DNA of 31,384 nt from Patescibacteria group bacterium (GCA_018817995.1 JAHISW010000046.1:1-31384), one strand, 5' to 3'. Positions 1,691-30,205 are shown, counted from the stretch's first letter. Program-made: numbers and translations. Notes: generated by a model from the letters alone, not told the origin.

Positions 1691-3022
1691 TTATTTCGTG
1701 TTGTTTTGACCATCGCCAAAAACATCGTCTAGAAATTCCAAAATTTCCTCTTTCTTCTCTTCCATTAGCGTCTCCGTTTCAGCTTCAATAACCAAACGCA
1801 TCAATGGCTCCGTGTTTGACGGACGCAAATTGAACCACCAGCTTGCCCCGCCACTGGCGGGGCTTGTCCCGTTCGTGACGGGGTTTGGATATTCTACCAA
1901 AATACCATCCTCAAAATTCTGGTTACCATCTCCATATTTTTCTTTTACTTTTTCCAAAATTTTATCCCATTCTCCCTTAGAAGAAAGTGGTAAATTAATT
2001 TCTCCTGAATGAAAATATCCGGAAAAACGATCTGCTAATTCTGATATTTTTAAACCAGAATTTTTGTCCAATGCTTCCAAAAGCATTCTTAAAGCAAAGA
2101 GTGCGGATTCAACATAATTAAGTTGCCCAAAATAGTAATGACTGGAAATCTCTAAGCCAAAAACAGCGTTTTTTTCTTTCATCGCTTTTTTAATATAAAA
2201 ATGCCCAACCCTGCTAATTTCTGTCCTAATTCCTTTTTCCTGAAAATGTTTTTTCAATTTTCTGGTTGAAACAACATCTTGAATTATCAAGTCTCCCTTT
2301 TCTAAAAAAGCATCAGCAATAATTCCACCGACAATATCCCCCCTTATCTCATTTTTGTTTTCGTCAAATACTTTTAACCTGTCCCCGTCGGCATCAAAAG
2401 AGACGCTAAAATCCGCATCAGAACTTGCGCAAACTTCTATCCCCATTTTTTCCAAAAAAGAGGGCAAAAATAAACCAACCACACTTTCCCTTGTATCTAT
2501 ATTTATTTTAATTTTACGATTTATTTTGAAATTTTTTGTAATCAAATCTAAATAGTCACCAGAAACATTAATGCTTTTTTCCGCGCCTTTTTTGTTGAAA
2601 TCCTTTAACTTTGCTTCTCTTAAAAATCTTTCTATATCCACTCCCCCTATCGGCTGGGCATTTTTATCCGTAAATTTTATACCATTGTATGTTTGAGGGT
2701 TGTGTGAAGCTGTTATCATCGCTCCGCCATCGCAACCCAAATGGTCAACAGCAAAATAAAGCATTGGTGTGGTCGCCTCGCCAATATTCAAAACATCTAT
2801 ACCGGAGTCTTTCAGGCCGTTCACAAACGAATCCGACAACGACAGTGAGCTGGGGCGAATGTCGCGCCCAACGGCAATCTTTCCTTTTCTTGCCCCGTTT
2901 TGTGCAGGGTCAATATAACTCGCGAAACCCCCGCCAAGAGTATAAAAAATATCCTCGCTTATATCCTCGCCATAAACACCCCTGACATCATACGCCCTAA
3001 AAATTTTCGGGTTGATATTCAT
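1691..3022 (-). CDS. Phosphomannomutase/phosphoglucomutase (alpha-D-phosphohexomutase family)
   Basis: IFRAYDVRG, MITASHNP (phosphoserine loop), FDADGDR (metal loop), LEISSHYYF and WFNLRPSNTEP. Start moved from 3046 to ATG 3022 (MNINPKIF), which has TATACT 8 nt upstream. Confidence 0.92.
   Translation of the reverse strand: MNINPKIFRAYDVRGVYGEDISEDIFYTLGGGFASYIDPAQNGARKGKIAVGRDIRPSSLSLSDSFVNGLKDSGIDVLNIGEATTPMLYFAVDHLGCDGGAMITASHNPQTYNGIKFTDKNAQPIGGVDIERFLREAKLKDFNKKGAEKSINVSGDYLDLITKNFKINRKIKINIDTRESVVGLFLPSFLEKMGIEVCASSDADFSVSFDADGDRLKVFDENKNEIRGDIVGGIIADAFLEKGDLIIQDVVSTRKLKKHFQEKGIRTEISRVGHFYIKKAMKEKNAVFGLEISSHYYFGQLNYVESALFALRMLLEALDKNSGLKISELADRFSGYFHSGEINLPLSSKGEWDKILEKVKEKYGDGNQNFEDGILVEYPNPVTNGTSPASGGASWWFNLRPSNTEPLMRLVIEAETETLMEEKKEEILEFLDDVFGDGQNNTK
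1845..1882. repeat. Two adjacent GC-rich hairpins in-frame in phosphomannomutase
   Basis: GCCCCGCCA-C-TGGCGGGGC (1845-1863, perfect 9+1+9) and CCCGT-TCGTG-ACGGG (1868-1882). Together they encode most of NPVTNGTSPASGGAS. Confidence 0.85.
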
Positions 3023-3030
3023 TATTACTA

Positions 3031-3038
3031 AGTATAAC
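3031..3038. promoter_or_regulatory. Overlapping divergent -10 hexamers in a 24-bp intergenic gap
   Basis: TATAAC (+, 3033-3038) is 8 nt before the ychF ATG at 3047. TATACT (-, 3031-3036) is 8 nt before the phosphomannomutase ATG at 3022. Confidence 0.6.
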
Positions 3039-3046
3039 ATCAACAT

Positions 3047-4111
3047 ATGAAGATAGGTATCGTGGGCCTGCCAAATGTGGGGAAATCAACGCTTTTCAAA
3101 GCCCTAACAAGAATACCGGTAGATATAAACAACTACCCTTTTTGCACCATTGAGCCGAACATTGGCATTGTTGAAATACCGGACAAAAGAGTTGACCGGC
3201 TCGCGGAAATTTTTTCATCGCGAAAAAAAATTTACGCAGTAATAGAATTTGTTGACATAGCGGGGTTGATTGAAGGAGCAGCGGAAGGACAAGGTCTTGG
3301 AAATAAATTTCTGCACCATATCAGAGAAGTTGATGCCATTATCCAAGTTGTCAGGATGTTTGAAAATGAAAAAATCATCCACGTCCGAGGGAAAATACAC
3401 CCAAAAGAAGACATCGGTATTATTAACACCGAACTGATATTAGCCGACATTGAAACCGTCCAAAAAAGAATTTCTAAGCTGGAAAAACAATCTCACTCGG
3501 GTGATAAAGACGCCATAAAACAACTAAGGATCACAAAAGAATTAGAGGAAGTTTTGAATGGAAACGACGTGTTTGAAATTAAAAAGTTTGCGGATTCGCT
3601 GGGAAAAAACGTAGATTTAATAAAAGATTTGCACTTGCTCTCGCTAAAGCCGAGTCTTTATGTTCTTAATGTTGATTCTTACGAAAAACTGGAAGAACAA
3701 TTTTCGAAATTCTCAATAGACATAGCTGACCCTAAGAATATCGCTATTGACACAAAAACAGAGGAAGAAATTTTGGAGTTGTCAGAAGAGGAAAAGAAAG
3801 AATTAAAACTGAAATCTCAATTGGAAAAACTGACAAAAGGAAGCTACGATCTTTTGGGACTAATGACGTTTCTCACTTCCGGAGAGGACGAAACTCGCGC
3901 GTGGACGATTCCCAAGAACTCAACGGCGCCCCGCGCCGGACGCGCCATACATAGCGATTTCGAAAACAAATTTATACGCGCCGATGTTATTCCGTACGCC
4001 AAACTAATAGAAGCTAGGACAATGGAAGAATCCAAAAAAAGGAATTTTGTCCAAACAGTCGGCAAAAACTACATCGTCCAAGACGGCGACATAATAGAAT
4101 TTAGGATATAA
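3047..4111 (+). CDS. ychF: Redox-regulated ATPase YchF (Obg family)
   Basis: GIVGLPNVGKSTLF, NYPFCTIEPN, FVDIAGL, GQGLGNKFL and a C-terminal TGS domain (YIVQDGDII). Confidence 0.97.
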   Translation: MKIGIVGLPNVGKSTLFKALTRIPVDINNYPFCTIEPNIGIVEIPDKRVDRLAEIFSSRKKIYAVIEFVDIAGLIEGAAEGQGLGNKFLHHIREVDAIIQVVRMFENEKIIHVRGKIHPKEDIGIINTELILADIETVQKRISKLEKQSHSGDKDAIKQLRITKELEEVLNGNDVFEIKKFADSLGKNVDLIKDLHLLSLKPSLYVLNVDSYEKLEEQFSKFSIDIADPKNIAIDTKTEEEILELSEEEKKELKLKSQLEKLTKGSYDLLGLMTFLTSGEDETRAWTIPKNSTAPRAGRAIHSDFENKFIRADVIPYAKLIEARTMEESKKRNFVQTVGKNYIVQDGDIIEFRI

Positions 4112-4131
4112 AACAAAAAACCCCGCAACCC

Positions 4132-4164
4132 TATCTGTGGGACATCGGATATCCCACAAATACA
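4132..4164. repeat. REP-like palindrome A, downstream copy
   Basis: TATCTGTGGGACATCGGATATCCCACAAATACA. Positions 4136-4164 are identical (29 bp) to 4630-4658. Confidence 0.92.
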
Positions 4165-4174
4165 AATACCGGCA

Positions 4175-4837
4175 CTAATCTATCGTAAATTCTCTGATTT
4201 GTTCAAAAGTATTTTTTGCTTTATTTTTGTTCGCACTACAGTCCTTCAAGAATTCATCATATTCATCGTAATCTTTACAATTTGACCACCGGTATGACTG
4301 AAGAAATTTTTTTGCTTTGTGCCAATTTTTAATCCCCTCTTCCTTCCATCTTGTCTCAAAAAGATCTAACGGATTCATATAAATATATTGAACAAGATAA
4401 TTTAAGTACTCGTCTCTATCAATTAAAACCGCCTTGAACTTACCTTGAAATAAAACACCGTCTCTTTCGTATTTTTCATTAAAATATTTCGTATAACCAA
4501 TTCCTAATTTTTGCATAAACTTAGAAATACCACAATCTTCCAGCTGTTCCAGTATTAAATGGAAATGATTCGGCATCAAACAACTACAATGAATCTTAAC
4601 AACTGGCTTCCTATCTTTCTCGTCAATTTTGTGGGACATCGGATATCCCACAAATACAGTGCCCTCTTCCACAATCACACGACGGAAAAGATTTATTGAA
4701 GAATTCCTGTCGTTGAAGTCTCTCAAGCCAAAAAGGAATCTACTATAATCCTTGTCTTCCATAAAAACCTTGCGCTTATCAGTTCCACGATTAAAAATAT
4801 GGTAAAAATGATTATTTGCAAATTTTGGTCTTTTCAT
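4175..4837 (-). CDS. REP-associated tyrosine transposase (RAYT; Y1_Tnp/IS200-like HUH endonuclease)
   Basis: FYHIFNRG, CLMPNHFHLIL (HUH), LFQGKFKA, YIYMNP (catalytic Tyr) and YRWS. Start moved from 4963 to ATG 4837 (MKRPKF), which has TATAAT 7 nt upstream. No tnpB is adjacent. Confidence 0.88.
   Translation of the reverse strand: MKRPKFANNHFYHIFNRGTDKRKVFMEDKDYSRFLFGLRDFNDRNSSINLFRRVIVEEGTVFVGYPMSHKIDEKDRKPVVKIHCSCLMPNHFHLILEQLEDCGISKFMQKLGIGYTKYFNEKYERDGVLFQGKFKAVLIDRDEYLNYLVQYIYMNPLDLFETRWKEEGIKNWHKAKKFLQSYRWSNCKDYDEYDEFLKDCSANKNKAKNTFEQIREFTID
4630..4658. repeat. REP-like palindrome A, in-frame copy inside the RAYT gene
   Basis: TGTGGGACATCGGATATCCCACAAATACA, whose minus strand encodes VFVGYPMSH(K). 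Confidence 0.92.
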
Positions 4838-4860
4838 TGGATTTATTATATACCCTTTTT

Positions 4861-4891
4861 TATCTGTGGGACATCCGATTTCCCACAGATA
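4861..4891. repeat. REP-like palindrome A, upstream copy
   Basis: TATCTGTGGGA-CATCCGATT-TCCCACAGATA, a perfect 11-bp outer stem starting 10 nt upstream of the RAYT -10 box. Confidence 0.92.
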
Positions 4892-4942
4892 CCAGAAGGG
4901 GTTGCGTAATTGGGAAAAGGCTGATACTATATTCTCTATAAT

Positions 4943-5383
4943 ATGGACAAGGCAAAAGAGCAATACGAAATCGGATATCTATTAAAACCGACCCTCAAAG
5001 AGGAAGATATTTCTAGTTTTCTTTTAAAATTAAGTGATGATATTACCAAAAGAAATGGTATGGTAATTTCTGAGGGAAAAACAAAAAAACAAACTTTAGC
5101 CTACCCAATCAAAAAAGAAACTTCCGCAATGTTTAATTGGATAAAATTCTCTTTGGACCCAATCTTTATAAGAGAGATCAAAGACATAATGGATGCGAAT
5201 CCTGTTGTGTTAAGATTTTTAATTATAAAAACAAAAGAAGAGAAACGAAAAGAACCGTCATCGATAAAGGTATTTTCCATCGCTAAAAAAACCGCTCAAA
5301 CCGAACAACAAATAATTGAAAAAGAGAGCGTCCAAGAAGAAGAAATTGATAAAAAAATAGAGGAGCTTCTTGGAGAAAATTAA
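4943..5383 (+). CDS. rpsF: 30S ribosomal protein S6
   Basis: YEIGYLL, LAYPIKK and VLRFLIIK. First gene of the canonical rpsF-ssb-rpsR order. Confidence 0.93.
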   Translation: MDKAKEQYEIGYLLKPTLKEEDISSFLLKLSDDITKRNGMVISEGKTKKQTLAYPIKKETSAMFNWIKFSLDPIFIREIKDIMDANPVVLRFLIIKTKEEKRKEPSSIKVFSIAKKTAQTEQQIIEKESVQEEEIDKKIEELLGEN

Positions 5384-5413
5384 AAAGATAATTATCATTC
5401 ATACAATTTTTAC

Positions 5414-5878
5414 ATGAATTTAAATAAAGCTTTTATTATCGGGAATTTGACAAGAGATCCAGAAATGAAGACTTTGCCTTCCGGAACTCCTGTTGTTTCT
5501 TTTGGAGTCGCGACAAATAGAGTTTGGAAAAACCAAAGTGGCGAGAAACAGCAAGAAGTTCAATTCCACAACATTGTTGTTTTTGGCAGACAAGCTGAAG
5601 TCGCAAACCAATACTTAAAAAAGGGCAGTAGCGCTCTAATAGAAGGAAGGATTCAGACTAGTCACTGGGAAGCCCAAGATGGAACAAAAAGATCCAAAAC
5701 GGAAATTGTGGCAGAAAGAATTCAACTGGGTCCAAGAAGAAACGGCCAAAACAGTTCCTCTCCAACAGATTTTAGCAAAAATGCAAACAACAGTAATCCG
5801 TCCAGCCAAAAGACAGAGTCGTTAGATACAATTGAATATCCAGAAGAAAATAACGACCCCGACAACATACCATTCTAA
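5414..5878 (+). CDS. ssb: Single-stranded DNA-binding protein
   Basis: MNLNKAFIIGNLTRDPE, IEGRIQT and the acidic C-terminal tail DNIPF. Confidence 0.97.
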   Translation: MNLNKAFIIGNLTRDPEMKTLPSGTPVVSFGVATNRVWKNQSGEKQQEVQFHNIVVFGRQAEVANQYLKKGSSALIEGRIQTSHWEAQDGTKRSKTEIVAERIQLGPRRNGQNSSSPTDFSKNANNSNPSSQKTESLDTIEYPEENNDPDNIPF

Positions 5879-5890
5879 TAAATAAAATTT

Positions 5891-6094
5891 ATGGCAAAAA
5901 ACTGCTACTTCTGCGCAAATAATATGAGGAGGATAGATTACAAAGAAACCAAAAACTTTGAGCAGTTTTTGGACGAGCAAGCAAAAATTATTCGCAGAAA
6001 AGAAACTCATTTTTGTGTCAAACACCAAAAAAAACTAACCCAGGCAATTAAGAGAGCCCGTTTTTTGGCTCTTATTCCTTTCGTCAGGCAATAA
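5891..6094 (+). CDS. rpsR: 30S ribosomal protein S18 (zinc-binding type)
   Basis: CYFC...IDYKE...CVKHQKKLTQAIKRARFLALIPF. Confidence 0.95.
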   Translation: MAKNCYFCANNMRRIDYKETKNFEQFLDEQAKIIRRKETHFCVKHQKKLTQAIKRARFLALIPFVRQ

Positions 6095-6108
6095 AAATAG
6101 GTTTTATT

Positions 6109-7116
6109 TTAAATTAAAATCTCTTTAATTTTCTTTTTTAGTTCTTGTTTTATCGCGAGGTTTTCTTTCAGAAACGTTCTTGCTTTTTCATATCCCGCGC
6201 CTAACTTTATGTTTCCATAAGAATAGGATACCCCCGATTTTTTTATAATCCCGTGTTTTTCTCCCAACATCAGAATTTCGCCCGTTGAAGATATACCCTC
6301 ATTGTAAATCAAATCAAATTCAGCCACCCGAAAAGGCGCCGCCGTTTTATTTTTGACAACCTTCGCTCTAGTCCTGCTGCCAATCACTTCATCTCCCTTT
6401 TTTATTTGAGCTATCCTTCTCACATCTATTCTAACAGAAGAGTAGAATTTCAAAGCTCTGCCACCCGGTGTTGTTTCGGGATTGCCAAACATAATACCTA
6501 TCTTCATCCTAAGTTGGTTTATAAATATAACAACTGTTTTGGATTTTGCGATTATGGCAGTAAGCTTTCTAAGTGCTTGCGACATCAACCTTGCCTGCAA
6601 TCCGATATGTTTATCCCCCATCTCCCCTTCAATTTCGGCCCGAGGAGTAAGAGCGGCAACCGAATCAATCACAATAACATCTATTTTGTTTGAACGCACC
6701 AAGCTTTCTGTAATCTCAAGCGCTTGTTCTCCATTGTCTGGCTGAGAAATTAAAAGATTTTCAATTTCAACACCTAATTTCTTGGCATACTCGGGATCAA
6801 GCGCGTGTTCAGCATCTATAAATGCGCACAAACCGCCCTTCTTCTGAGCTTCGGCAACGACATGCAATGCCAATGTTGTTTTTCCGGAAGACTCCGGGCC
6901 ATAAATCTCTATTATTCTTCCCCTGGGCACCCCCCCCACGCCAAGCGCGGCATCAAGAGATATTGAGCCCGTCGGGATAGCATCAACATCCACCCTGCGC
7001 GCATCGCCAAGTTTCATTATCGCTCCCTCTCCATATTTAGACTTAATCCCCTCCAGTACAACATTTATCTCTTCCCCATCAATTTTTGCTTTGTTTGTTT
7101 TTTTAGATTTTATCAT
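6109..7116 (-). CDS. recA: Recombinase RecA
   Basis: [27 protein letters not shown] and [19 protein letters not shown]. Confidence 0.98.
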
Positions 7117-7122
7117 ACCTTG

Positions 7123-7482
7123 TTATTTATTAACAATTTCTATCTTTTTATTTACTTTCCTTCCAAATTTATCTTTGGCCGTCAATTCAATGATATTATA
7201 TCCCTTCGTCAAAATCAACTGCTCTTCAAAATTACCAAAACTATCAGTAATAATGGGCCTATCATTTAACAACAAGCTGTCCGTATTCACAGCGCTTCCG
7301 TTTACAAAAACAATCGACTTACTTAGTGTTTCCCCATTTTCAGGAGATCTTACGGCAATCTGTGGACCTAATAAAAAAGCCCTTGACTGGTGAAAAAAAT
7401 AAAAAAACAGACAAACAGAAACGCACAGGCCAATAAATAACTTAATAAAAAAACTATTTCTGCCCATCATAATTTTCTTCAC
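7123..7482 (-). CDS. Membrane-anchored protein with a bacterial Ig-like domain
   Basis: Hydrophobic N-terminal helix followed by GPQIAV.SPENG...VNG...GNF...LTKGYNIIELTAKDKFG, an Ig-like beta-sandwich pattern. Lies between ftsK and recA. True start may be ATG 7470 or 7467. Confidence 0.65.
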   Translation of the reverse strand: MKKIMMGRNSFFIKLFIGLCVSVCLFFYFFHQSRAFLLGPQIAVRSPENGETLSKSIVFVNGSAVNTDSLLLNDRPIITDSFGNFEEQLILTKGYNIIELTAKDKFGRKVNKKIEIVNK

Positions 7483-9604
7483 TCATTGGTCTAACCAAAA
7501 CATCTCTGGGACGTGAACCGTCTTGAGGACCCACGATATTTCTTTCCTCCAACATGTCCAATAAGCGCGCAGCGCGCGCATACCCCACGCGAAGACGTCT
7601 CTGTAAATAGGAGGAAGACGCTTTTTGCGCTTCAATAACTAAACTACGCGCCTTTTCATAAAGCTCATCATCTTCTTCGTCGTCCTCAAAAGAACTCGAC
7701 TCGCTATCAAAAATGGACGACTGTTTTTGCTCTCCCACTCCCAAATCTATTTCGTCCAAGCTAAAATCTTCACATTGATTAACTAAATAGTCAACAACTT
7801 TTTTAACCTCATTTTCTGACACAAAGGACCCCTGGATACGCCTTGGTTTTGTCGTATCGCCGGACAAATAAAGCATGTCTCCATTGCCCAAAAGTTTTTC
7901 CGCCCCAGCCATATCCAATATTGTTCTAGAATCCACCTGAGATGCAACTTGAAAAGCGATACGAGCCGTAATATTCGCCTTTATTAATCCCGTAATAACT
8001 TCCACCGAAGGACGCTGTGTGGAAACAACCAGGTGAATACCAACAGCGCGAGACATCTGCGCCAATCTAACTATAGCGGCTTCAAATTCACGCGGATAAG
8101 TTGCCATAATATCCGCAAGCTCATCAATAATAATAACAATAAATGGCATATCGCAGTTTTTGTTCTTTTTGTGGTAGGAGGTTATGTCGCGCGCCCCGGC
8201 CTGCAAAAGAATCTCATAACGCCTTTCCATCTCTTTGGTTGCCCATTTCAGCGCCATTATTGCTTTTTTGGCTTCCGTGATAACGGGCGACAAAAGATAT
8301 GGGAGATTATTATAAATATTCAATTCAACTCTCTTGGGGTCAATCAATAAAAGCTGTAAATCCAAGGGTGAATGACGATAAAGCAAACTCATCATCAAAG
8401 AATGAATGGCAACCGATTTGCCGGAGCCCGTAGCGCCGGCAATCAAAAGATGTGGCATCTTCGCCATAGAAGAATAAACAGGTCTGCCAGCAACATTGCG
8501 TCCCAAAGCAATAAGCAAAGGATTATCAGTATCTCGAAACGCAGATTCACCCAAAAGATGTCTTAGCCCCACCATGGAAGAAGTTCTATTGGGAACCTCA
8601 ACTCCAACAAGAGACTTTCCGGGAATAGGAGCCTCAATTCTAATAGGGTGACTCGCCAAAGCCAGCGCCAAATCATTGTTCAATGCTGTTATTCGTGAAA
8701 GTTTTACACCCTCCGCCGGCTTGAAAGAATACTGAGTTACCGAAGGACCGATGCACACTTCATTCATCTCAATATTTATTCCGAAATTTTGAAATGTCCT
8801 TTTTATAACATTAGCATTAGCTTTTATGTCACCTGCCGACGGCTTACCCTTGTCCGCCTCCAGTAAATCAAAGGGAGGTGGCTGAAACTTCTTGCCATTT
8901 TGAAACACATTATTCATATATTTTTTTGCTTTTTTATCTTTTATTTGTTCGACGGACTCCTCATCAGCCACGACAGATACAGCGCTTTGGTTTTCATCGC
9001 TGTCTTTTCCTTCTGTCTCCTCAACAACATTCTTGTCAACATCATCAAAATCCGAAAGTTTATCTTTTTTCCTGTTTAAAACTATTTCTTTGCCCAAAAC
9101 TTTTTTAAGCGCAACAAACGAAATAGGAACATTAAACATTATTAAAAAACCAATCAAAAAAGCCACTGCGAATAATATTAAGCTGGCCCAAAAATCAACG
9201 AACTTTAAAAACGGAAGAGCCGCCAAAAAACCCACATAACCCCCACTCTTGTCATCAAAAACAATATCCGTAAGCGCCAAACCGCTGAAAAGCGTTAACA
9301 AACCGCCTATTAAATTGGTAACCAGCAAATTGGGCCTAAAAGAAGAAAACAACGATATAGCGACGAAAAAGAAAAGAACGGGCGCGAGAAAGAACGCTTC
9401 TCCGAAAAGAAATCCAAGGCCCATGTGAACGTACTCTCCAACCAAGCCGGCTTTTCCAAAAACGGCCAAAACCAAAAAAAGAGAAACGCCAAGGCAAATA
9501 ACAGCCCACACAGAATATTTAGTTTCATCCCTCAGCCCACAGTACCACTTGCCATTCTCCTCTGATATGATTTTTTTTCTTTTTTTATTTTTTTCAGCCA
9601 CCAT
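7454..9604 (-). CDS. ftsK: DNA translocase FtsK/SpoIIIE
   Basis: N-terminal transmembrane helices, PHLLIAGATGSGKS, IIIDELAD, TQRPSV and a gamma domain LQRRLRVGYARAARLLD. Confidence 0.96.
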   Translation of the reverse strand: MVAEKNKKRKKIISEENGKWYCGLRDETKYSVWAVICLGVSLFLVLAVFGKAGLVGEYVHMGLGFLFGEAFFLAPVLFFFVAISLFSSFRPNLLVTNLIGGLLTLFSGLALTDIVFDDKSGGYVGFLAALPFLKFVDFWASLILFAVAFLIGFLIMFNVPISFVALKKVLGKEIVLNRKKDKLSDFDDVDKNVVEETEGKDSDENQSAVSVVADEESVEQIKDKKAKKYMNNVFQNGKKFQPPPFDLLEADKGKPSAGDIKANANVIKRTFQNFGINIEMNEVCIGPSVTQYSFKPAEGVKLSRITALNNDLALALASHPIRIEAPIPGKSLVGVEVPNRTSSMVGLRHLLGESAFRDTDNPLLIALGRNVAGRPVYSSMAKMPHLLIAGATGSGKSVAIHSLMMSLLYRHSPLDLQLLLIDPKRVELNIYNNLPYLLSPVITEAKKAIMALKWATKEMERRYEILLQAGARDITSYHKKNKNCDMPFIVIIIDELADIMATYPREFEAAIVRLAQMSRAVGIHLVVSTQRPSVEVITGLIKANITARIAFQVASQVDSRTILDMAGAEKLLGNGDMLYLSGDTTKPRRIQGSFVSENEVKKVVDYLVNQCEDFSLDEIDLGVGEQKQSSIFDSESSSFEDDEEDDELYEKARSLVIEAQKASSSYLQRRLRVGYARAARLLDMLEERNIVGPQDGSRPRDVLVRPMSEENYDGQK

Positions 9605-14311: not shown

Positions 14312-14326
14312 ATAATTTTATTTTTT

Positions 14327-14353
14327 AACTATGGAAGTTCAACTCCCATAGTT
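14327..14353. repeat. REP-like palindrome B, downstream copy
   Basis: AACTATGGAAGTT-C-AACTCCCATAGTT, 13+1+13 with one mismatch. Confidence 0.92.
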
Positions 14354-14360
14354 GATAGAA

Positions 14361-15068
14361 TCATTCTAAAATGATGTCTTTCATATTCTCTAAATTTCTT
14401 TGAGAATCTTTTAGCCAATCCTTAGTTTCCTTTTTATATTTTTCCTCTCCACCAAAAAAATCCAAAAGAAATTCTCGCTGTGTTACAGACGGAAAATTCT
14501 TTTTTTTAACATAATCAGGAAAACTACTCCATCTATAATTCTCCAAAAACTTCATTTGCCTAACTATGGAAGTTGAACTTCCATAGTTGATTAATTTCAG
14601 TGGGTTTAAGTGAATATAATACGGCAAATGCAAAATATGAGCATGCTCCTCTATTTTAACTGCTTTAAATCTACCCTGAAACAAACTCCCGACTCTCTCA
14701 TATTTCTTATTAAAATAATTTGTATATCCGGTTCCTAGCTTTTGCATAAATTTCACGATCCCTCCCTCTTTTTTCTGCATCAAAAGCAAATGAAAATGAT
14801 TCGGCATTAATGTAAAAATTAATATTTCCACGAGCAATTTTCTTGGTTTCTTTTTTTCTTTCAACTGGTCTAGGTATTGGCTTTCAACTTTCATGGTTTC
14901 GGGATTAAAATAAAAATTCATATTTGATGACAACGCCTCATCATTAAATTCAAATAAATCATGGATAAAACGAAAATAATCCTTATCGTTCATAAATATC
15001 TTTCTTTTCTCCACACCACGATTGTATATATGGTATATTTTGTTGTTTACAAATATTGGCTTCTTCAT
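14361..15068 (-). CDS. REP-associated tyrosine transposase (RAYT; Y1_Tnp/IS200-like HUH endonuclease)
   Basis: IYHIYNRG, TLMPNHFHLLL (HUH), LFQGRFKA, YIHLNP (catalytic Tyr) and YRWSS. TATAAT lies 8 nt upstream of the ATG. Confidence 0.9.
   Translation of the reverse strand: MKKPIFVNNKIYHIYNRGVEKRKIFMNDKDYFRFIHDLFEFNDEALSSNMNFYFNPETMKVESQYLDQLKEKKKPRKLLVEILIFTLMPNHFHLLLMQKKEGGIVKFMQKLGTGYTNYFNKKYERVGSLFQGRFKAVKIEEHAHILHLPYYIHLNPLKLINYGSSTSIVRQMKFLENYRWSSFPDYVKKKNFPSVTQREFLLDFFGGEEKYKKETKDWLKDSQRNLENMKDIILE
14562..14588. repeat. REP-like palindrome B, in-frame copy inside the RAYT gene
   Basis: AACTATGGAAGTT-G-AACTTCCATAGTT, perfect. The minus strand encodes NYGSSTSIV just after YIHLNP. Confidence 0.93.
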
Positions 15069-15083
15069 GCACTATAATTATAC

Positions 15084-15110
15084 AACTATGGAAGTTCAAC
15101 TTCCATAGTT
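15084..15110. repeat. REP-like palindrome B, upstream copy
   Basis: AACTATGGAAGTT-C-AACTTCCATAGTT, perfect. It is 1 nt from the -10 box (15077-15082) and 3 nt from the upstream gene's stop codon. Confidence 0.93.
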
Positions 15111-15113
15111 GAT

Positions 15114-23198: not shown

Positions 23199-23786
23199 AT
23201 GATAAAAAAAACACTAAAAAGAGGCGCGGCGCTCTTTCTGGCCGGCGCTATTGATGGCTCTTTGGGAGTGTTGCTCGTTTTTGCTTTTTCCAAAATATTT
23301 CACCACCCTGTTTCGTTTTGGATTTATTTGGCAGGAATAATTCTTGCGCTAATTCCAGATATAGATTTATTCATACAAAAAATATTTGAAAAAAGATGTG
23401 ATGGAAATCATAGAAAATATCTCCATTATCCTCTCTTTATTTTTCCTCTATTTTTTTTCTTGTCTTTTTTTTCTCTTTTTTGGGCATACCTCGTATGTTT
23501 ATGCCTAATAACGCATTTTATTCATGACAGTGGAGGAAATGAAGAAAATAGATGGGGAATAAAATGGCTTTGGCCTTTTTCTGATAATTATTATCAATTT
23601 TTTGGTAAAAAAAGAAGGAAATTTTCTGTTATACTTGAATGGACTCCAAGAGAAATAGAAAAAAGAGTATCAGAAAACTGGGACTCCTGGTTAAGTAAAA
23701 ATTATTTAAAATTTCCAGCAGAATCATTTGTTGGTATTCTGTTGGGCATTTTCGCTTTAATTATTGTTTTCTGGCGGGGGGGCTAA
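23199..23786 (+). CDS. Inner-membrane metal-dependent hydrolase (YdjM-like)
   Basis: ALIPDID, HRKYLH, THFIHD and GIKWLWPF motif pattern with hydrophobic helices. Confidence 0.72.
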
Positions 23787-23813
23787 ATAAAAGTTGAGGG
23801 AATAAAAAAAAAT

Positions 23814-23852
23814 AAAAACGCATCGTTGTTTCGTCACAGCAATGCGTTTTTT
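23814..23852. terminator. Bidirectional intrinsic terminator between the hydrolase gene and the tRNA
   Basis: AAAAACGCATCGTTG / CAGCAATGCGTTTTT stem with A/T runs on both sides. Confidence 0.7.
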
Positions 23853-23858
23853 ATACCG

Positions 23859-23897
23859 CCCACTCCACCAAAATCAAGGGGGTTTTGATGGAGTGGG
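23859..23897. repeat. Long intergenic hairpin (17-bp stem)
   Basis: CCCACTCCACCAAAATC-AAGGG-GGTTTTGATGGAGTGGG, with one mismatch and one wobble. No U-tail in the tRNA direction. Confidence 0.65.
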
Positions 23898-23949
23898 GCA
23901 AAAAATGGCTTAACGAGCAATAGACAAAAAAGGGCAAAATTCCGTAATG

Positions 23950-24020
23950 TGCGAGTAGGGGTAATCGAAACCCCGTCTGTTGCTTGGGAAGCAACTGTTC
24001 TGCCACTAAACTATACTCGC
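23950..24020 (-). tRNA. tRNA-Gly (anticodon CCC)
   Basis: GCGAGTA/TACTCGC acceptor stem, GTTT/GAAC D-stem, GTTGC-TTCCCAA-GCAAC anticodon arm and GGGGT-TTCGATT-ACCCC T-arm. CCA is not encoded. Confidence 0.93.
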
Positions 24021-24024
24021 TTAT

Positions 24025-24408
24025 TTAAAACTTTATTAAATCCCAGATTTTTTGGAAAAAACCTTCTTCTTGTTTTTTGCTTTCCTCTTCTGAAATTTCT
24101 TCTTCTTTGTCAACAAAAATAATAAATTTTTCCCCGGGTTTTTTTATCTGAAATTTTTTTTTCAGCTCCGCCTCAATTCCGACATCTGTCTTTAATCTGT
24201 TTATATTCGCCCCCATTATGTCTCCTCTTTTTTGTAAATCTTGCAATTCGTTTTCTGTCGCTTCATTTTTCAAAAGAGCTTCCCTGCTTTTTTTATAAAT
24301 ATCAAAAACAGAAAAACTGACAAATACAAGCGCGCATAAAAACAAAACAAAAACGGAACGAGAAAAAAATATTTTTCTAAAAAGACGCCTTTGCTCAAAC
24401 TCTTTCAT
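24025..24408 (-). CDS. Septum formation initiator-like protein (FtsB/DivIC family)
   Basis: Single transmembrane helix, then a coiled coil, then LKTDVGIEAELKKKFQIKKPGEKFIIFV. Confidence 0.7.
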   Translation of the reverse strand: MKEFEQRRLFRKIFFSRSVFVLFLCALVFVSFSVFDIYKKSREALLKNEATENELQDLQKRGDIMGANINRLKTDVGIEAELKKKFQIKKPGEKFIIFVDKEEEISEEESKKQEEGFFQKIWDLIKF

Positions 24409-24412
24409 GGAC

Positions 24413-24421
24413 TATAATATA
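24413..24421. promoter_or_regulatory. Overlapping divergent -10-like hexamers in a 16-bp intergenic gap
   Basis: TATAAT (+, 24413-24418) is 6 nt before ATG 24425. TATATT (-, 24416-24421) is 7 nt before ATG 24408. Confidence 0.5.
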
Positions 24422-24424
24422 ATT

Positions 24425-24532
24425 ATGCTTTTGTCTAAAAAAGGAAAGAAACTTAACCGATTTATTTGGATTACTATTAGTATCGTGGCGGTCATCAGTA
24501 TGGTAGGGTACCTCGTCATACCGCTGTTTTAA
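24425..24532 (+). CDS. Small single-pass membrane protein (35 aa, not in the ORF track)
   Basis: MLLSKKGKKLNRFIWITISIVAVISMVGYLVIPLF: a basic N-terminus plus one transmembrane helix. It fills the gap exactly between two annotated genes. Confidence 0.65.
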   Translation: MLLSKKGKKLNRFIWITISIVAVISMVGYLVIPLF

Positions 24533-24534
24533 AT

Positions 24535-25500
24535 TTAAACCAAATTCGGCGGTGTGCCCCCCTCCAAAGCAACTATTATATTGTCGGCAGTCATTTCCGA
24601 CATCTTAGATCTTGTTTCTTCTGTGGCGGAAGCAATATGCGGAGTTAAGATCACATTATCTAAACCAACCAAACCTTCGGCAAGTTCAGGTTCTTCTTCA
24701 AAGACATCCAAGGCAGCCCCTTTTATAACACCATCCCTCAGGGCGGAAACCAGGAACTTTTCGTCGACAACAGGACCCCTTGAAGTGTTCACCAAATAAG
24801 CAGATTTTTTCATCATTTTTAATCTGTCCGCATTCATCAAATGCTTGGTTGAATCAATAAGAGGAACGTGCAGAGAAACTATGTCGGACTCTTTTAAAAC
24901 ATCTTCCATATTTTCTTTGTAGGTAGCGCCTATTTCTTTCTCAAAATCCTCATTCCTTTTTACATCGTAATACAACACATTCATATTAAATCCGTTTTTT
25001 GCGTGATGCGCCACTTGCGAACCAATCCTACCCAATCCGATAATTCCCAATGTTTTTCCGGAAATGTTGGAACCTAACAAAAGTTTGGGAGCCCACCCTT
25101 TATATTTTCCTTCTCTTGTAAACTTATCCGCCTCCGCAATTCTGTGGGCTATGGCTAAAATCAAAGCAAACGCATATTCTGCCACAGTTTCGGTCAAAAC
25201 GCCCGGTGTGTTGGTAATCATTATTCCTTTCTCCTTAGCTGTGTCCACGTCAATATTATTATAACCAACAGCATAATTGGCAAAAATTTTTGCTTGTGGC
25301 GCCGCTTCAAAAACTTCTTTGTCAATTTGGTCTGTTAAAAGACACAAAACAGCATCGTAGGGTTTTGCGCTAAGAGCAGAAATTAATTCTTCTTTTGTTA
25401 AAACTTTATCGTCAGGGTTTATGTCAACTTCATACCCTTTTTCTTTTAATTTATTGATTCCTGCATCGGGAATATTTCTCGTAATATATATCTTTGACAT
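24535..25500 (-). CDS. D-isomer-specific 2-hydroxyacid dehydrogenase (D-glycerate dehydrogenase/glyoxylate reductase type)
   Basis: YAVGYNNID, TNTPGVL, GIIGLGRIG, VNTSRGPVVDE, GAALDVFEEEP and TPHIASA. Confidence 0.93.
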   Translation of the reverse strand: MSKIYITRNIPDAGINKLKEKGYEVDINPDDKVLTKEELISALSAKPYDAVLCLLTDQIDKEVFEAAPQAKIFANYAVGYNNIDVDTAKEKGIMITNTPGVLTETVAEYAFALILAIAHRIAEADKFTREGKYKGWAPKLLLGSNISGKTLGIIGLGRIGSQVAHHAKNGFNMNVLYYDVKRNEDFEKEIGATYKENMEDVLKESDIVSLHVPLIDSTKHLMNADRLKMMKKSAYLVNTSRGPVVDEKFLVSALRDGVIKGAALDVFEEEPELAEGLVGLDNVILTPHIASATEETRSKMSEMTADNIIVALEGGTPPNLV

Positions 25501-25506
25501 ATAATT

Positions 25507-26370
25507 TTATATTTTATTAACACTTCCAAATAGTCTTAGTTTCTCTAAAACAACCTTTTGTACCGCCTCAATGACTGGCGGAAAAATTTTATAAGGCGTT
25601 TTTTGTTCCGGATTATCTTCAAGCGACCTGCGAAGAGCATCGGTGTAAGCGACTCTTATATCCGTATTCACATGAATATTGGCAATACCCGCCCCTATGG
25701 CTTTTTTCATGTCCTCTTCGGAAATGCCAGAACCACCGTGCAAAACAAGCGACACATTCCCCGGCAAAATTTTTCTTATCTCTTTAATTCTTTCAATATC
25801 TATCTTGGGCTCGTTTACAGCAATCCCGTGTATATTGCCATAAGCGCCAGAGAATCTATCTATTCCTGTTTTTTCAACAAATTCAGCCGCCTCTTCCGGC
25901 TTTGTTAAATCCTCCTCCTTAATTTCAATGACTTCTTTTTGCACCTCGGACTTTCCGCGAAGATAGCCCAGCTCTCCTTCCACGGAAACATCGGAATTTT
26001 TTGACTTAACATAATCAACAACTTCTTTTGTTCCTTTTATGTTTTCCTCCAGGGATAGTTTAGAAAGGTCTATGTGAACAGAATTAAAACCGGCATCAAA
26101 AGCTTCTTTTGCCGATTCAACCGAATAGGAATGATCGGGGTTCAAAAAAATAGGGGTGCTATATTCCTCCTCAAAAACTTTCACCATTTCCACCGCCTGC
26201 TTCAGACCGAAAAAATTTCTTTCTCCCTCGGAAAGGCCAATCATAATAGGTGTCTTTAATTCTTCTGCGGCAGAAACAATGGCTCTCAATTGTTCCATGT
26301 TTGAGACATTAAAATGCCCCGTAGACCAATAATTTTGTGTAGCGTCTTGAAGAATGGTATTTAAATTCAT
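25507..26370 (-). CDS. fba: Class II fructose-bisphosphate aldolase
   Basis: HFNVSNME, LNPDH, VEGELG, YGNIHG and LVLHGGSG. Confidence 0.88.
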   Translation of the reverse strand: MNLNTILQDATQNYWSTGHFNVSNMEQLRAIVSAAEELKTPIMIGLSEGERNFFGLKQAVEMVKVFEEEYSTPIFLNPDHSYSVESAKEAFDAGFNSVHIDLSKLSLEENIKGTKEVVDYVKSKNSDVSVEGELGYLRGKSEVQKEVIEIKEEDLTKPEEAAEFVEKTGIDRFSGAYGNIHGIAVNEPKIDIERIKEIRKILPGNVSLVLHGGSGISEEDMKKAIGAGIANIHVNTDIRVAYTDALRRSLEDNPEQKTPYKIFPPVIEAVQKVVLEKLRLFGSVNKI

Positions 26371-26395
26371 ATTATTTTAGTTTAAATCAACTAGC

Positions 26396-26426
26396 GAGAT
26401 CCGATCTCTGGAGGAGATCGGATCTC
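26396..26426. repeat. Orphan nested palindrome (perfect 13-bp stem; each arm itself palindromic)
   Basis: GAGATCCGATCTC-TGGAG-GAGATCGGATCTC. Confidence 0.85.
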
Positions 26427-26436
26427 CAAACATTAA

Positions 26437-26464
26437 TAATTCATAACTCCAAATTCATAATTCA
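26437..26464. repeat. Degenerate 7-bp tandem tract spanning a stop codon
   Basis: TAATTCA TAACTCC AAATTCA TAATTCA. The TGA of ORF 26455..27693 is inside the third unit. Confidence 0.65.
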
Positions 26465-27693
26465 ATATATCCTTTCTCAAAATTATCTATAATCATTTCC
26501 TCCATTTTTTCCTCGCTACCGACAATCTCAGAGAATATCTCATTCCAAAGCGCTTCCTGGTGATGATAAAGATATTTAATCATCTCCTTTCTTCTAACCA
26601 AAGACATAACGGTGTCAACCAAATTAAAACTCACCAAAACATCCGCCCCCGCGCCGGTTGGATAAAAATCGCCCACAAAACCAACATCCCTCCAAAAACT
26701 CAAATCAACACTGTCAACAATACCACCTATTTTACTTATGCCATCCTCCGTTTTTTTCCAATGGACCGCTTCTGGATTTACATGTGGCTCGAAAAGACGC
26801 CAATCGTTCTCGTCATCTTTGGCCAAGTATCTTTGAACTATCATCCATTTTTTGCCCAAATCCGCCTCTGGAACTTTTTCATCAGGAACATCTCCTCTCA
26901 AAAAACCCACCAAACGTTCCGCAAAATTGTCTTTGTCGGAATGTTTTCTGAACAATTTTGAGTAAAAATCTATTTCATACCTGTAGTGCAAGACCAAGGC
27001 GGCCGTCCGTAAAGTCTCTCCTTTTATTCCAAGGACTGCCGGTAAAACAAAGATCACTCCCAGTTCCTTCAAGTGGCTTATGTTATGGTACTTTTTCTTG
27101 AGAAATTTTTCAGCCACATCTTTCCACCTATCGCCCAGAACAATCATTTTAATTTCCCTCTCCTCAAAATCTTCAGGAATCAGTTTCTCATATTGCTTGA
27201 AAAAAATATTATTAAGCCATTCTCCGTCTTCCATAAAACGTAAAGCGCTGAAAATTTCAAAAACATTTTCATTTTCCAGCAAATCGCCCATATTCCCATA
27301 GCCCAGTCCCCTTAAAATATTTTTCGGAGGAACGTCAAAAAGAAGTTCCTTGGCTTTCTCTTCTTTAATAAAAAAACCTTTGCCGACACCGGCCGCTCTT
27401 TCAACAGCATCAAGCAAACCGCGACAGCCCTTTTCCGTATCGCAAACAGGCCGGTTTAACGCTTCCGATAATTTTTTGTCGTCCTCCTCAACCTTGTTTA
27501 ACAAAAACCTGTAAATGTCAGAAGCGCCACGCGTTTTGGGAGATAAAACAGATAATTTTGCCTCTATTATTCTTTCATTTTCTTCAACAATTTTTCTTAC
27601 AACATCTTCTCTCACGGTGGCAACCGTATCTTTATCCGCCCTTAAAATACGAGCTATTTTTTTGTAATAATTTATGCTTGTGTCATTCGCCAT
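26455..27693 (-). CDS. Hypothetical protein (412 aa)
   Basis: Long open frame with globular-looking composition (SHLKELGV, FEPHVNPEA.HW, YLYHHQEALWN). No family recognised. Confidence 0.65.
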   Translation of the reverse strand: MANDTSINYYKKIARILRADKDTVATVREDVVRKIVEENERIIEAKLSVLSPKTRGASDIYRFLLNKVEEDDKKLSEALNRPVCDTEKGCRGLLDAVERAAGVGKGFFIKEEKAKELLFDVPPKNILRGLGYGNMGDLLENENVFEIFSALRFMEDGEWLNNIFFKQYEKLIPEDFEEREIKMIVLGDRWKDVAEKFLKKKYHNISHLKELGVIFVLPAVLGIKGETLRTAALVLHYRYEIDFYSKLFRKHSDKDNFAERLVGFLRGDVPDEKVPEADLGKKWMIVQRYLAKDDENDWRLFEPHVNPEAVHWKKTEDGISKIGGIVDSVDLSFWRDVGFVGDFYPTGAGADVLVSFNLVDTVMSLVRRKEMIKYLYHHQEALWNEIFSEIVGSEEKMEEMIIDNFEKGYIEL

Positions 27694-27754
27694 ACTAAAC
27701 TATTTTAACAAAAACATTAAGATTACGCCAATGGCCCCAAGTATATTTATATTT

Positions 27755-30205
27755 TTATTTATTCCCGCAACATTTCTTATATTTCTTTCCGCTTCCGCAC
27801 GGACAGGGGTCGTTTCTCCCCGCCTCTCTCTTGAATATAACATTCTGTGGAACATTGCCCTGAACGGCCGGCCTAATATTCAAAATCAATTTAACAAAAG
27901 TATTTTTTATAGACAATTCCAAATCCCTAAACAATCTTATCCCTTCATTTTTGTACTCTACTAAAGGATCACGATTGCCATAAGCTCGCAATCCGACAGA
28001 AGAACGCATATAGTCCATAACCTCTAGATGGTCTATCCAGTGCGTGTCAATTACTCTTAAAAATAAATTTTTTTGCGCCTGAAAAAACTGCCCGCCTGCT
28101 GGCGAGGCAGGTCCCTCAGTAAACTCCCCTTTCTTCTTTTCCAGAATGCTCACATCTTCTCCGGCCTCCTCCAACAATTCCCTTGTTTTGTTTTCCAAAA
28201 AATCTTTATCGGCAAAAAGAATTTCTCGTCTCATATTATAAATCTTGGTGCGCTGTTTATTCATCACGTCATCATATTCAAGAATGTGTTTTCTTGCGTC
28301 AAAATTTAATCCTTCTATTTTTGATTGCGCGGACTCTATCGCCCTTGAGACCATTCTGTTTTCAAGTGGAACATCCTCAGGAACGCCTAAACTTTTCATC
28401 ATGTTTTTAATTTTTTCGGAGCCAAAAATTCTCATCAAACTATCTTCCAAAGACACAAAAAATCTGCTTTCCCCGGGATCACCCTGCCTGCCAGAACGAC
28501 CGCGCAGTTGATTGTCTATGCGACGCGCTTCATGCCTCTCTGTGCCCAAAACAAAAAGCCCCCCAAGATTCCTAACATCCTCCGCCTCCTTTTCGTTAAA
28601 AGGATTACCCCCCAAGACAATGTCAACACCACGACCTGCCATATTGGTTGCCACGGTAACCAATCCTTTCTTGCCTGCCTGAGCAATAATCTCGCCCTCT
28701 TCCTCATGATGTTTCGCATTCAGCAAACGATGAGGCACCCCTTCTTTTTTCAGCAAGGCGGAAAGATATTCGTTTTTATCAATAGAAACTGTTCCAATAA
28801 GAACGGGTTGTCCTTTTTTATGTCTTTCTTTTATTTCTTCTACTACTGCCTTGAACTTTCCTTGTTCTGTTGAATAAACTAAATCTGGTTTGTCTTTTCT
28901 TACAAGAGGTTTATTGGGGGGGACATTGACAACCTCAAGTTTATAAACCTTGTCAAACTCTTCCGCAGAAGTTAAAGCCGTTCCCGTCATCCCGGACAGC
29001 TTTTCATACATTCTAAAATAATTTTGAAAAGTAATACTGGCAAGTGTCCGCGATTCTTTTTGCACAAAAACACCCTCCTTCGCTTCAATAGCCTGATGTA
29101 AACCCTCGGACCACCTTCGCCCCGGCATTAATCTTCCGGTAAACTCATCAACGATAATAATTTCTCCATTTTTCACAACATAGTCTTTGTCTTTCTTGAA
29201 AAGAGCGGATGCTCGTAAGGCTTGATTTAAATGGTGGACATATTTAATTCCCTTTTCCGTATAAATATCCCCCACGCCCAATATTTTTTCCACTTTTTCA
29301 ATACCGTCTTCATTGACGGAAACCGCTCTTTGTTTTTCATCAACAGTAAAATGTTTATTTTCTTTAAGTTGGGGAGCAATTTTCGCAAAAGTTTTGTAAA
29401 GTTCGGCAGACTCTTCATCGGGTGCGGAAATAATCAAGGGAGTCCTGGCCTCATCAATCAAAATTGAGTCAATCTCGTCAACAATCGCAAAGTAATGATT
29501 TTTTTGAGCAATTTGCGGATTTTGGTCCGCCCCGCCAACGGCGGGGTAAGCCATACTGTCGCGTAAATAATCAAAACCGAATTCATTGTTTGTCCCATAT
29601 GTAATATCCGCCTCGTATGCTTCCTTTCTTTCACATGGCCTCAAAAATTCATGCACAACCTTAAAAGATCCAAGCGCATCACGCTCTTCATCAATATTAT
29701 TTTCAAAACTAGAGTCGTAAAGAAAACTTGAATCATGATTGATACACCCCACAGACAATCCCAAAGCATCATATATCTGCCCCATCCAGACAGTATCACG
29801 CCTTGAAAGATAATCATTGACCGTAACAACATGAACTCCTTTTCCAACTAAAGCATTCAAATAGATGGGGAGTGTCGCGGCAAGTGTTTTACCCTCTCCT
29901 GTTTTCATTTCGGTAATTCTTCCTTGATGGAGGGCTATGCCACCCAAAATCTGCGAATCAAAATGACGCTGTCCAAGCGTCCGTTTGGCAGATTCTCGAA
30001 CAACGGCAAAAGCTTCCGGTAAAATATCATCCAAAGAAACCCCTCCCTGGAGACGTTTTTTGAATTCTTTTGTTTTGTTTCTTAAATTGTCTTCGGATAA
30101 AGATTCAAAATCCTTTTCAATGTTATTTATTTTAACCACTTCTAATTTAAACTTCTTCAAAAGACGGTCATTTGAATCTCCCATGATTTTGCTTAATATT
30201 CCCAT
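27755..30205 (-). CDS. secA: Preprotein translocase subunit SecA
   Basis: EMKTGEGKT, GTNNEFGFDYLRD, IVDEIDSILIDEARTPLIIS, ATNMAGRG, RGRSGRQGDPG and C-terminal SEC-C GRNDPCPCGSGKKYKKCC. Confidence 0.98.
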   Translation of the reverse strand: MGILSKIMGDSNDRLLKKFKLEVVKINNIEKDFESLSEDNLRNKTKEFKKRLQGGVSLDDILPEAFAVVRESAKRTLGQRHFDSQILGGIALHQGRITEMKTGEGKTLAATLPIYLNALVGKGVHVVTVNDYLSRRDTVWMGQIYDALGLSVGCINHDSSFLYDSSFENNIDEERDALGSFKVVHEFLRPCERKEAYEADITYGTNNEFGFDYLRDSMAYPAVGGADQNPQIAQKNHYFAIVDEIDSILIDEARTPLIISAPDEESAELYKTFAKIAPQLKENKHFTVDEKQRAVSVNEDGIEKVEKILGVGDIYTEKGIKYVHHLNQALRASALFKKDKDYVVKNGEIIIVDEFTGRLMPGRRWSEGLHQAIEAKEGVFVQKESRTLASITFQNYFRMYEKLSGMTGTALTSAEEFDKVYKLEVVNVPPNKPLVRKDKPDLVYSTEQGKFKAVVEEIKERHKKGQPVLIGTVSIDKNEYLSALLKKEGVPHRLLNAKHHEEEGEIIAQAGKKGLVTVATNMAGRGVDIVLGGNPFNEKEAEDVRNLGGLFVLGTERHEARRIDNQLRGRSGRQGDPGESRFFVSLEDSLMRIFGSEKIKNMMKSLGVPEDVPLENRMVSRAIESAQSKIEGLNFDARKHILEYDDVMNKQRTKIYNMRREILFADKDFLENKTRELLEEAGEDVSILEKKKGEFTEGPASPAGGQFFQAQKNLFLRVIDTHWIDHLEVMDYMRSSVGLRAYGNRDPLVEYKNEGIRLFRDLELSIKNTFVKLILNIRPAVQGNVPQNVIFKREAGRNDPCPCGSGKKYKKCCGNK
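28088..28110. repeat. GC-rich hairpin in-frame in secA
   Basis: CTGCCCGCC-TGCT-GGCGAGGCAG with one bulge, encoding (G)PASPAGGQ. Confidence 0.78.
29530..29546. repeat. GC-rich hairpin in-frame in secA
   Basis: CCCCGCC-AAC-GGCGGGG, a perfect 7-bp stem encoding PAVGG. Same arms as the 1846-1862 element. Confidence 0.82.

Follow-up and report, generated by a model that had tools for sequence, protein, structure and literature searches.

The stretch of DNA analysed here, a contig of 31,384 nucleotides (nt) from a Patescibacteria group bacterium (GCA_018817995.1 JAHISW010000046.1:1-31384) which we refer to in its whole length as the window, carries five short GC-rich palindromic units written in frame into two housekeeping genes, a phosphomannomutase (PMM) gene and secA. 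These mini-palindromes are probably copied and dispersed non-autonomous repeats resembling the repetitive extragenic palindromes (REPs) of other bacteria, which are tolerated where they come to lie within protein loops. The source is a groundwater bacterium with a small genome (~0.7 Mb), assembled as 706,581 bp in 95 contigs with 38% G+C (genome G000), and the window constitutes contig C89 of this assembly. Aligned with related genes, all five GC palindromic units read as exact 21-nt insertions. The two genes and the units that they contain are as follows:

1691-3046, minus strand: PGM/PMM-family gene (phosphomannomutase/phosphoglucomutase), 451 amino acids (aa); homologues carry Pfam PGM_PMM I-IV
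1842-1862, plus strand: PMM site a, unit A, CTTG followed by CCCCGCC-ACT-GGCGGGG, 21 nt; the minus (coding) strand gives S-P-A-S-G-G-A
1863-1883, plus strand: PMM site a, unit B, CTTG followed by TCCCGT-TCGTG-ACGGGG, 21 nt, in tandem with unit A; encodes N-P-V-T-N-G-T
2889-2909, plus strand: PMM site b, CTTG followed by CCCCG-TTTTGTG-CAGGG, 21 nt, decayed (1 stem mismatch); encodes D-P-A-Q-N-G-A
27755-30205, minus strand: secA, 816 aa; homologues carry Pfam SecA_DEAD, SecA_PP_bind, SecA_SW and SEC-C
28091-28111, plus strand: SecA-2, a unit of the second repeat family described below, CCCG followed by CCTGC(T)-GGCGA-GGCAGG, 21 nt; encodes P-A-S-P-A-G-G
29526-29546, plus strand: SecA-1, TCCG followed by CCCCGCC-AAC-GGCGGGG, 21 nt; encodes P-A-V-G-G-A-D

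A preliminary description of this DNA had named GCCCCGCCACTGGCGGGGC at 1845-1863 and CCCGTTCGTGACGGG at 1868-1882 in the PMM gene and CCCCGCCAACGGCGGGG at 29530-29546 in secA, all of which are present. The imperfect palindrome that it reported at 28088-28110 is likewise present, and its weaker candidate was found and is placed at 2889-2909. Translation agrees with its account of a kept reading frame and of the peptides SPASGGA, YPAVGGA and PASPAGG, and its expectation that homologues are shorter at these sites is borne out for each site by alignment with relatives. The element size that it gave, ~17-24 nt, was about right and is here sharpened to a 4-nt tag and a hairpin of 15-17 nt, or 18-21 nt in total. 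Both hairpins that it placed in the PMM region are real and are refined to two tandem units, each unit in the window being exactly 21 nt long.

The insert at PMM site a totals 42 nt, with CAAG ending each unit on the coding strand. Deletion of units A and B leaves CCA AAC TGG (P-N-W), which matches YP-[D/N/S]-WWFN in the relatives. The closest PMM relative (L155, 74% identity) lacks the units of site a and that of site b, and at site b reads FATYISKGKIVVGRD, shorter by exactly 7 aa; the assignment of site b as a unit is weaker than that of the other sites. Units of 7 aa occur at site a in other relatives, their palindromes intact in G004 and G006, two of the genomes compared with the host (G004, G005, G006 and G007), and decayed in the relatives L156 and L157. 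The G004 unit is CCCCGCC-GAT-GGCGGGG followed by CAAG, and the stems are perfect in both G000 and G004 despite their different loops.

In secA, SecA-1 is missing from 29 of 29 family- and class-level relatives, in which MAY runs directly into QKEQ, and it is present in L061, a SecA relative at 80% identity. For SecA-2 the same relative provides an exact empty site, GAG GGT CAG TTT, as against GAG GGA, the 21 nt and then CAG TTT in the window. The preliminary description would have counted it against its reading if close relatives had the peptides with no palindrome in the DNA; we find the peptide either missing from relatives or accompanied there by a palindrome. The main PMM and SecA sites both read CCC GCC NNN GGC GGG on the coding strand (P-A-x-G-G), and the added peptides of 6-7 aa are rich in Pro, Ala and Gly because the stems are built of CCN, GCN and GGN codons. 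An assembly artefact is ruled out by the presence of the insertions in independent assemblies of relatives and in contigs of four other metagenomes. Upstream of secA, 39 nt at 30294-30332, within a degenerate short tandem repeat tract, are skipped in contigs of near-identical strains from two other metagenomes (runs X3, X4), which reads as a strain-level indel.

AlphaFold models place the four window sites in predicted flexible loops, either of low confidence or coil, in keeping with the tolerance in loops that had been proposed. In the PMM model (mean predicted local distance difference test score, pLDDT, of 89.5) residues 390-399 at site a, flanked by a strand on either side, form the sole internal segment scoring under 50, and site b falls in the coil linking helix 31-45 to strand 56-61. 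In the SecA model (mean pLDDT 68.5) residues 219-231 at SecA-1 and 699-703 at SecA-2 are below 50 and are coil, the latter stretch sitting between helices.

GC palindromes of this kind exceed their null expectation both in the window and genome-wide, an excess to which the preliminary description had tied its reading. The window contains CCGCC-N3-5-GGCGG 2 times, where dinucleotide shuffles predict 0.01. Across the coding sequence of G000, counted as GC-rich perfect hairpins within open reading frames (ORFs) of at least 150 aa, there are 25 GC hairpins against 8.4 ± 2.5 in synonymous-codon shuffles (maximum 16 in 100) and 7.7 ± 2.8 in codon-order shuffles. Codon use in G000 has no strong bias (share per amino acid: CCC 0.215, GCC 0.243, GGC 0.221, GGG 0.187), and wherever else the proteome has a genuine PAxGG peptide, the codons that encode it are non-palindromic. 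Some palindromes represent chance background. Those at 3924-3938 (CGGCGCCCCGCGCCG, in the YchF motif TAPRAGRAIH) and 7565-7579 (GCGCGCAGCGCGCGC, in the FtsK-like motif GYARAARLL) were rejected as units because each is part of a conserved motif and is not an insertion, and the same is true of the palindromes of GatA and ClpP.

Compared across the genome, the units can be assigned from their sequences to dispersed repeat families, each member consisting of the 4-nt tag and the GC hairpin of 15-17 nt. Family 1 has the form YTTR plus CCCCGC(C)-NNN-(G)GCGGGG, which on the opposite strand appears as the hairpin and then YAAR. Its master sequence is the 19-mer CCCCGCCGAGCGGGGCAAG, found in IscU, MiaA and contig C7, and a 19-22-mer, CTTGCCCCGCTCGGCGGGG(TTG), is common to IscU (sense), MiaA (antisense) and C7. 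Family 2 has the form CCCG plus CCTGCC-N4-5-GGCAGG. The 21-mer of SecA-2 recurs exactly at C10:394 and C65:1070, with 1 mismatch at C45:5575 and with 3 mismatches at two more loci, and copies of the SecA-2 type are read in three different frames. The tag forms seen are TTTA and CTTG (both YTTR), CCCG and TCCG. Long intergenic GC palindromes, GCGCCTGCCTGCC..GGCAGGCAGGCGC, at C31:10094-10125 and C80:11018-11038, each after GTGATATAG, may be full-length relatives of family 2.

In all, G000 has 38 CCCGC-N3-7-GCGGG hairpins against 1 for the reversed control. That every genome-wide CCGCC..GGCGG match belongs to the family is ruled out, those at C74, C85 and C63 being 23S rRNA, 16S rRNA and RNase P RNA, and some CCCGC hairpins are intrinsic terminators; the rRNA, RNase P RNA and terminator hairpins were therefore set aside from family 1. 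The remaining hairpins have asymmetric flanks in common, one of the two sides bearing YTTR (TTTA or CTTG) as a tag. This tag is found in 22 of 162 flanks versus roughly 4-6 expected, a hand estimate from base composition and not from shuffles. Among 22 copies examined in G007, similarity ends exactly at the 19-mer; several of them fall within long open frames, with each of the three phases represented, and the base preceding the hairpin is A in 15 of the 22, with no consensus target.

Distribution was surveyed over 41 genomes, with the hairpin followed by YAAR as the strict family 1 pattern. Strict copies number 15 in G000, 28 in G007 and 12 in G005, the last two representing the sister genera with high family 1 copy number; five other genera of the family have 1-3 each and 33 genomes of other families 0-2, with controls at 0. 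About half of the strict copies are located in genes, and the YTTR/YAAR tag is preserved in three genera. The family 2 pattern CCTGCC-N4-5-GGCAGG varies between 0 and 23 per genome over the 41 genomes of the class, several of which have 7-23, with controls at ~0. On these counts family 1 is restricted to the bacterial family of the host and family 2 is spread class-wide.

In-frame copies reside in a range of housekeeping genes, namely those of SecA, PMM, IscU, MiaA and RluA in G000, YchF in G007 and RluA in G005. G000 MiaA, which is fused to MiaB, has 6 additional aa (PAERGK, +18 nt), G000 RluA has a further 6 (FTPPGG, +18 nt) and G000 IscU contains the insertion LAPLGGV, all three of which are absent from family relatives. 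PAERGK appears again in G007 YchF, encoded by the same 18 nt as in G000 MiaA. G005 RluA has a 21-nt unit, GCCTACC-GGACA-GGTAGGC, at a position other than that used in G000 RluA, and both G005 and G007 have units at the IscU site of G000, the G007 unit being decayed. Among in-gene copies with a comparable empty site the net insert lengths are 18 or 21 nt, that is, multiples of 3. As to the MiaA host gene itself, at C95:3080-4969 (L070) in G000 MiaB (UPF0004 and radical SAM) and MiaA (IPPT) form one 630-aa ORF. The fusion is probably shared within the family, most other genera of which have an open frame of 621-720 aa; in several other families MiaA is separate and ~300 aa long.

Copies are not confined to protein-coding genes. 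Beside tRNA-Lys(TTT) on C87 is a tRNA-Lys-like copy (L089, minus strand, about 660-774) in which a 21-nt unit interrupts the D-loop and a second unit, of 19 nt, follows position 26, and deletion of both units restores the neighbouring tRNA-Lys sequence exactly, with no duplication. A tRNA-Lys-like fragment in G007 (C6:22950-23040, L176) carries other hairpin variants at the same two positions. Function of these interrupted copies as tRNAs was rejected: ARAGORN calls none in G000 or G007, even with the inserts removed, and they are therefore treated as pseudo-copies. A unit is nested inside another hairpin at C21, and one lies inside a REP arm at C65. Taken together, the copies have been pasted as DNA into intergenic DNA, a tRNA-like pseudogene, other hairpins and genes.

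We propose a mechanism in which the element is copied non-autonomously into a new site as DNA. Purifying selection would then remove disruptive insertions and leave in-frame copies within loops as the survivors, with the inserted loops likely to be near-neutral passengers and not functional additions. The copying enzyme may be one of nine HUH Y1 single-strand DNA transposases (similar to IS200 and to the REP-associated tyrosine transposases, RAYTs) acting in trans. Nine Y1_Tnp (PF01797) matches above cut-off are found in G000, two of them in the window. Both window genes score above the cut-off of the Pfam Y1_Tnp model and below that of the NCBIfam RAYT model (REP_Tyr_transpos), and each has a palindrome of its own upstream, downstream and in frame within the gene. 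These genes and palindromes, together with palindromes of the same type found in ORFs of other contigs, are:

4175-4963, minus strand: Y1/RAYT-like gene 1, Pfam Y1_Tnp E = 4e-8
4132-4163, 4626-4657 (inside the gene) and 4861-4892: the three copies of the gene 1 palindrome, TGTGGGACATCGGATATCCCACA
14361-15068, minus strand: Y1/RAYT-like gene 2, Y1_Tnp match
15083-15111 (upstream), 14562-14588 (in the gene) and ~14325-14355 (downstream): the gene 2 palindrome, CAACTATGGAAGTT..AACTTCCATAGTTG
C39:716, C45:8918, C85:13591, C94:12191, C10:634, C84:6197 and C66:1702-1875: RAYT-type palindromes in ORFs

Several of the seven further RAYT-like matches have stems that have co-varied (CAACTAT plus a variable inner stem), and the AT-richer palindromes of RAYT type (CAACTAT.., ACTTGGAAGC.., TGTGGGACATC..) are also found inside long ORFs. 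The G007 YchF ortholog (C1:175458-176549, L179) has a further C-terminal insertion of 11 aa, SSVGSSTSHRD, whose resemblance to the RAYT-palindrome peptide NYGSSTSIV suggests that longer REP-like hairpins may also insert in frame in housekeeping genes.

That a Y1/RAYT enzyme moves the mini-hairpins is, on the present analysis, a tentative possibility. In its favour are the abundance of Y1 genes in the genome and the likeness of the tagged hairpin to the architecture of REPs (PMC3733652, PMC3479197). The three best-resolved junctions, at SecA-2 and in the two tRNA-like positions, also speak for it, being seamless with no target duplication, and the others have an ambiguity of 0-2 nt. The idea that the 18 and 21 nt lengths stem from duplication of 2 nt of target (AA or AC) at every site fits MiaA and SecA-1 and fails at the tRNA-like, SecA-2 and PMM sites, and was rejected. 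Among the 8 genomes of the family, strict copies are fewest in the two that have no RAYT, which is a weak trend in so small a set. It is rather doubtful that the tag with a single hairpin of 18-21 nt forms a complete HUH Y1 substrate that homes to preferred sites. If true, this unit of 18-21 nt would be the smallest known mobile DNA unit and a standing source of small loop insertions in essential Patescibacteria proteins, with the hairpins kept by re-copying or by selection.

A number of observations weigh against the dispersal of REP-like elements as set out above. The palindromes flanking the RAYT-like genes are AT-richer, 23-39 nt long and of one type per gene, and the GC mini-hairpin flanks none of the RAYT-like genes in G000. 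Across the 41 genomes the number of RAYTs does not track that of CCCGC hairpins, and the tags are not the GTAG or CGTC of the described REP super-families (PMC3733652). From genus to genus a given site (one codon at PMM site a, one loop of IscU and the two tRNA-Lys-like positions) can hold a different variant, which is unexpected under simple random transposition and calls for site preference, an ancient insertion with turnover, or gene conversion. Units of 19 nt in genes give a net gain of 18 nt, so junctions are not always exact. SecA-1 lies inside a run of 28 nt identical between the window and L061, the second-longest identical stretch in the gene, when the two secA genes have 76.5% nucleotide identity, synonymous codons match at 55% across the gene and the synonymous sites flanking SecA-1 differ; this identity hints at constraint or recent homogenisation. 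Finally, near-identical strains in 4 further metagenomes retain both SecA units, and no empty-site allele was found there in assembled contigs, which drop rare variants, so that at the level of contigs no current polymorphism is seen.

Some of these observations would be accommodated by templated patch insertion without a dedicated transposase, an account that we nonetheless regard as improbable. Ectopic donors, such as terminators or other copies, would be introduced by template switching, microhomology repair or gene conversion at stalled forks, and the hairpin families would reflect preferred donors with no enzyme of their own. Consistent with this, evident intrinsic terminators (C24:5788, C11:5345) have the CCCCGC-NNN-GCGGGG core as their stem, and pairs of family 2 copies share a flank of 8-9 nt, CWGTTTTTT after SecA-2 and the C45 copy and CGACCTCC after those of C10 and C65. 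Variants at the same site in different genera are what gene conversion would yield, and the hairpins flank no RAYT gene. However, the asymmetric YTTR tag is conserved with the hairpin (22/162 flanks) and kept in three genera, the similarity among the 22 G007 copies stops exactly at the 19-mer, and the 5' side is without microhomology.

A selected function, whereby the hairpins or their Pro/Ala/Gly loops are kept for mRNA stability, for translation pausing during folding or as a binding site, is very unlikely. It would account for the 28 identical nt at SecA-1 in a relative at 76.5% nucleotide identity, for the perfect stems around different loops at PMM site a in G000 and G004, for the persistence of GC-rich stems in a 38% GC genome and for the fixation of both SecA units in strains of four other samples. 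Yet the same sequence is found in unrelated proteins, read in any of three frames and in either orientation, as well as within a tRNA pseudogene and between genes, and the insertions are absent from most relatives. Copies are also decaying elsewhere (PMM site b, L156, L157 and G007 IscU), and the insertion sites are predicted to be disordered loops. Chance, by which the palindromes would be a coincidence of encoding Pro-Ala-x-Gly-Gly peptides with GC-rich codons, merits next to no credence: CCC, GCC, GGC and GGG each make up 19-24% of their own amino acid's codons and the null predicts ~8 GC hairpins for the coding sequence, 3924-3938 and 7565-7579 being such cases, but it is contradicted by the counts of 2 against 0.01 in the window and 25 against 8.4 in the coding genome, every named site is an insertion and identical 19-21-mers recur.

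Unusual insertions within genes that are otherwise conserved are a known trait of candidate-phyla-radiation bacteria. Dispersed REP-like mini-hairpins would provide a concrete source, at the level of DNA, for insertions of 7 codons in such genes, and would set a lower size bound for REP-like repeats. The units are tolerated in a genome of 0.7 Mb even by secA, iscU and genes for tRNA modification. The combination of nine Y1 genes, two hairpin families and genus-specific copy numbers offers a tractable system for the targets of RAYT-like paralogues. In practical terms, lineage-specific indels of 6-7 residues could mislead alignments, phylogenies and the calling of frameshifts or pseudogenes.

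Among known systems, REPs are tagged short palindromes of the GTAG and CGTC super-families, and intragenic REPs have been described (PMC3733652); their nucleases are the RAYT/TnpA-REP proteins (PMC3479197, PMC8266576). Like the mini-hairpins, REPs are dispersed stem-loops (~20-40 bp) with an unpaired tetranucleotide at the end and form lineage-specific families (PMC3733652, PMC3479197). In both cases ORFs of known proteins contain some of the copies and gain short peptides from them, and RAYT-like Y1 HUH genes are present in the genome. In contrast to REPs, the mini-hairpin tag is YTTR, CCCG or TCCG and not GTAG or CGTC, the length of 18-21 nt is at or under the REP lower size limit, and the stems are perfect and nearly pure G+C in a 38% GC genome of a ~0.7 Mb Patescibacteria host. 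As the palindromes next to the RAYT genes of this host are of other kinds, no REPtron link can be drawn for the mini-hairpins. The IS200/IS605 'peel and paste' elements (PMC6006769) share with them the presence of Y1 HUH enzymes and the seamlessness of the best-resolved insertions, and recognition of the hairpin is plausible. IS200/IS605 elements, however, are cleaved at defined tetra- or pentanucleotides and carry a pair of dissimilar subterminal hairpins, whereas the mini-hairpins are single and have no clear target consensus.

Two further systems bear comparison. The Rickettsia palindromic elements (RPEs), cited as precedent in the preliminary description, are apt in effect, as palindromic repeats that sit in frame in housekeeping genes unrelated to each other, in a reduced genome, and are tolerated where the protein permits. 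They depart in size, at ~150 bp, and RPEs of ~100-150 bp encode a conserved peptide of 30-50 aa (PMC10969869), whereas the mini-hairpins add 6-7 aa, are readable in any of three frames and have no conserved peptide module. Yeast mitochondrial GC clusters, including in-frame insertions in var1 (PMC8811140, PMC4464245), and the repetitive hairpin elements of sponges (PMC2800124) are the other precedents. Like the mini-hairpins, the mitochondrial clusters are short, GC-rich palindromes scattered over a compact genome that is itself AT-rich; they too are polymorphic as in-frame insertions, nest or merge, and have copies in RNA genes. They are usually 30-40 bp or more, with terminal AG/TAG repeats as target duplications of which the mini-hairpins have none, and no HUH enzyme is implicated in the mitochondrial case. 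In literature searches such elements were not found to be described in Patescibacteria. Intragenic REPs and RPEs are thus already known; what is new is the ultra-short variant and its occurrence in a Patescibacteria lineage.

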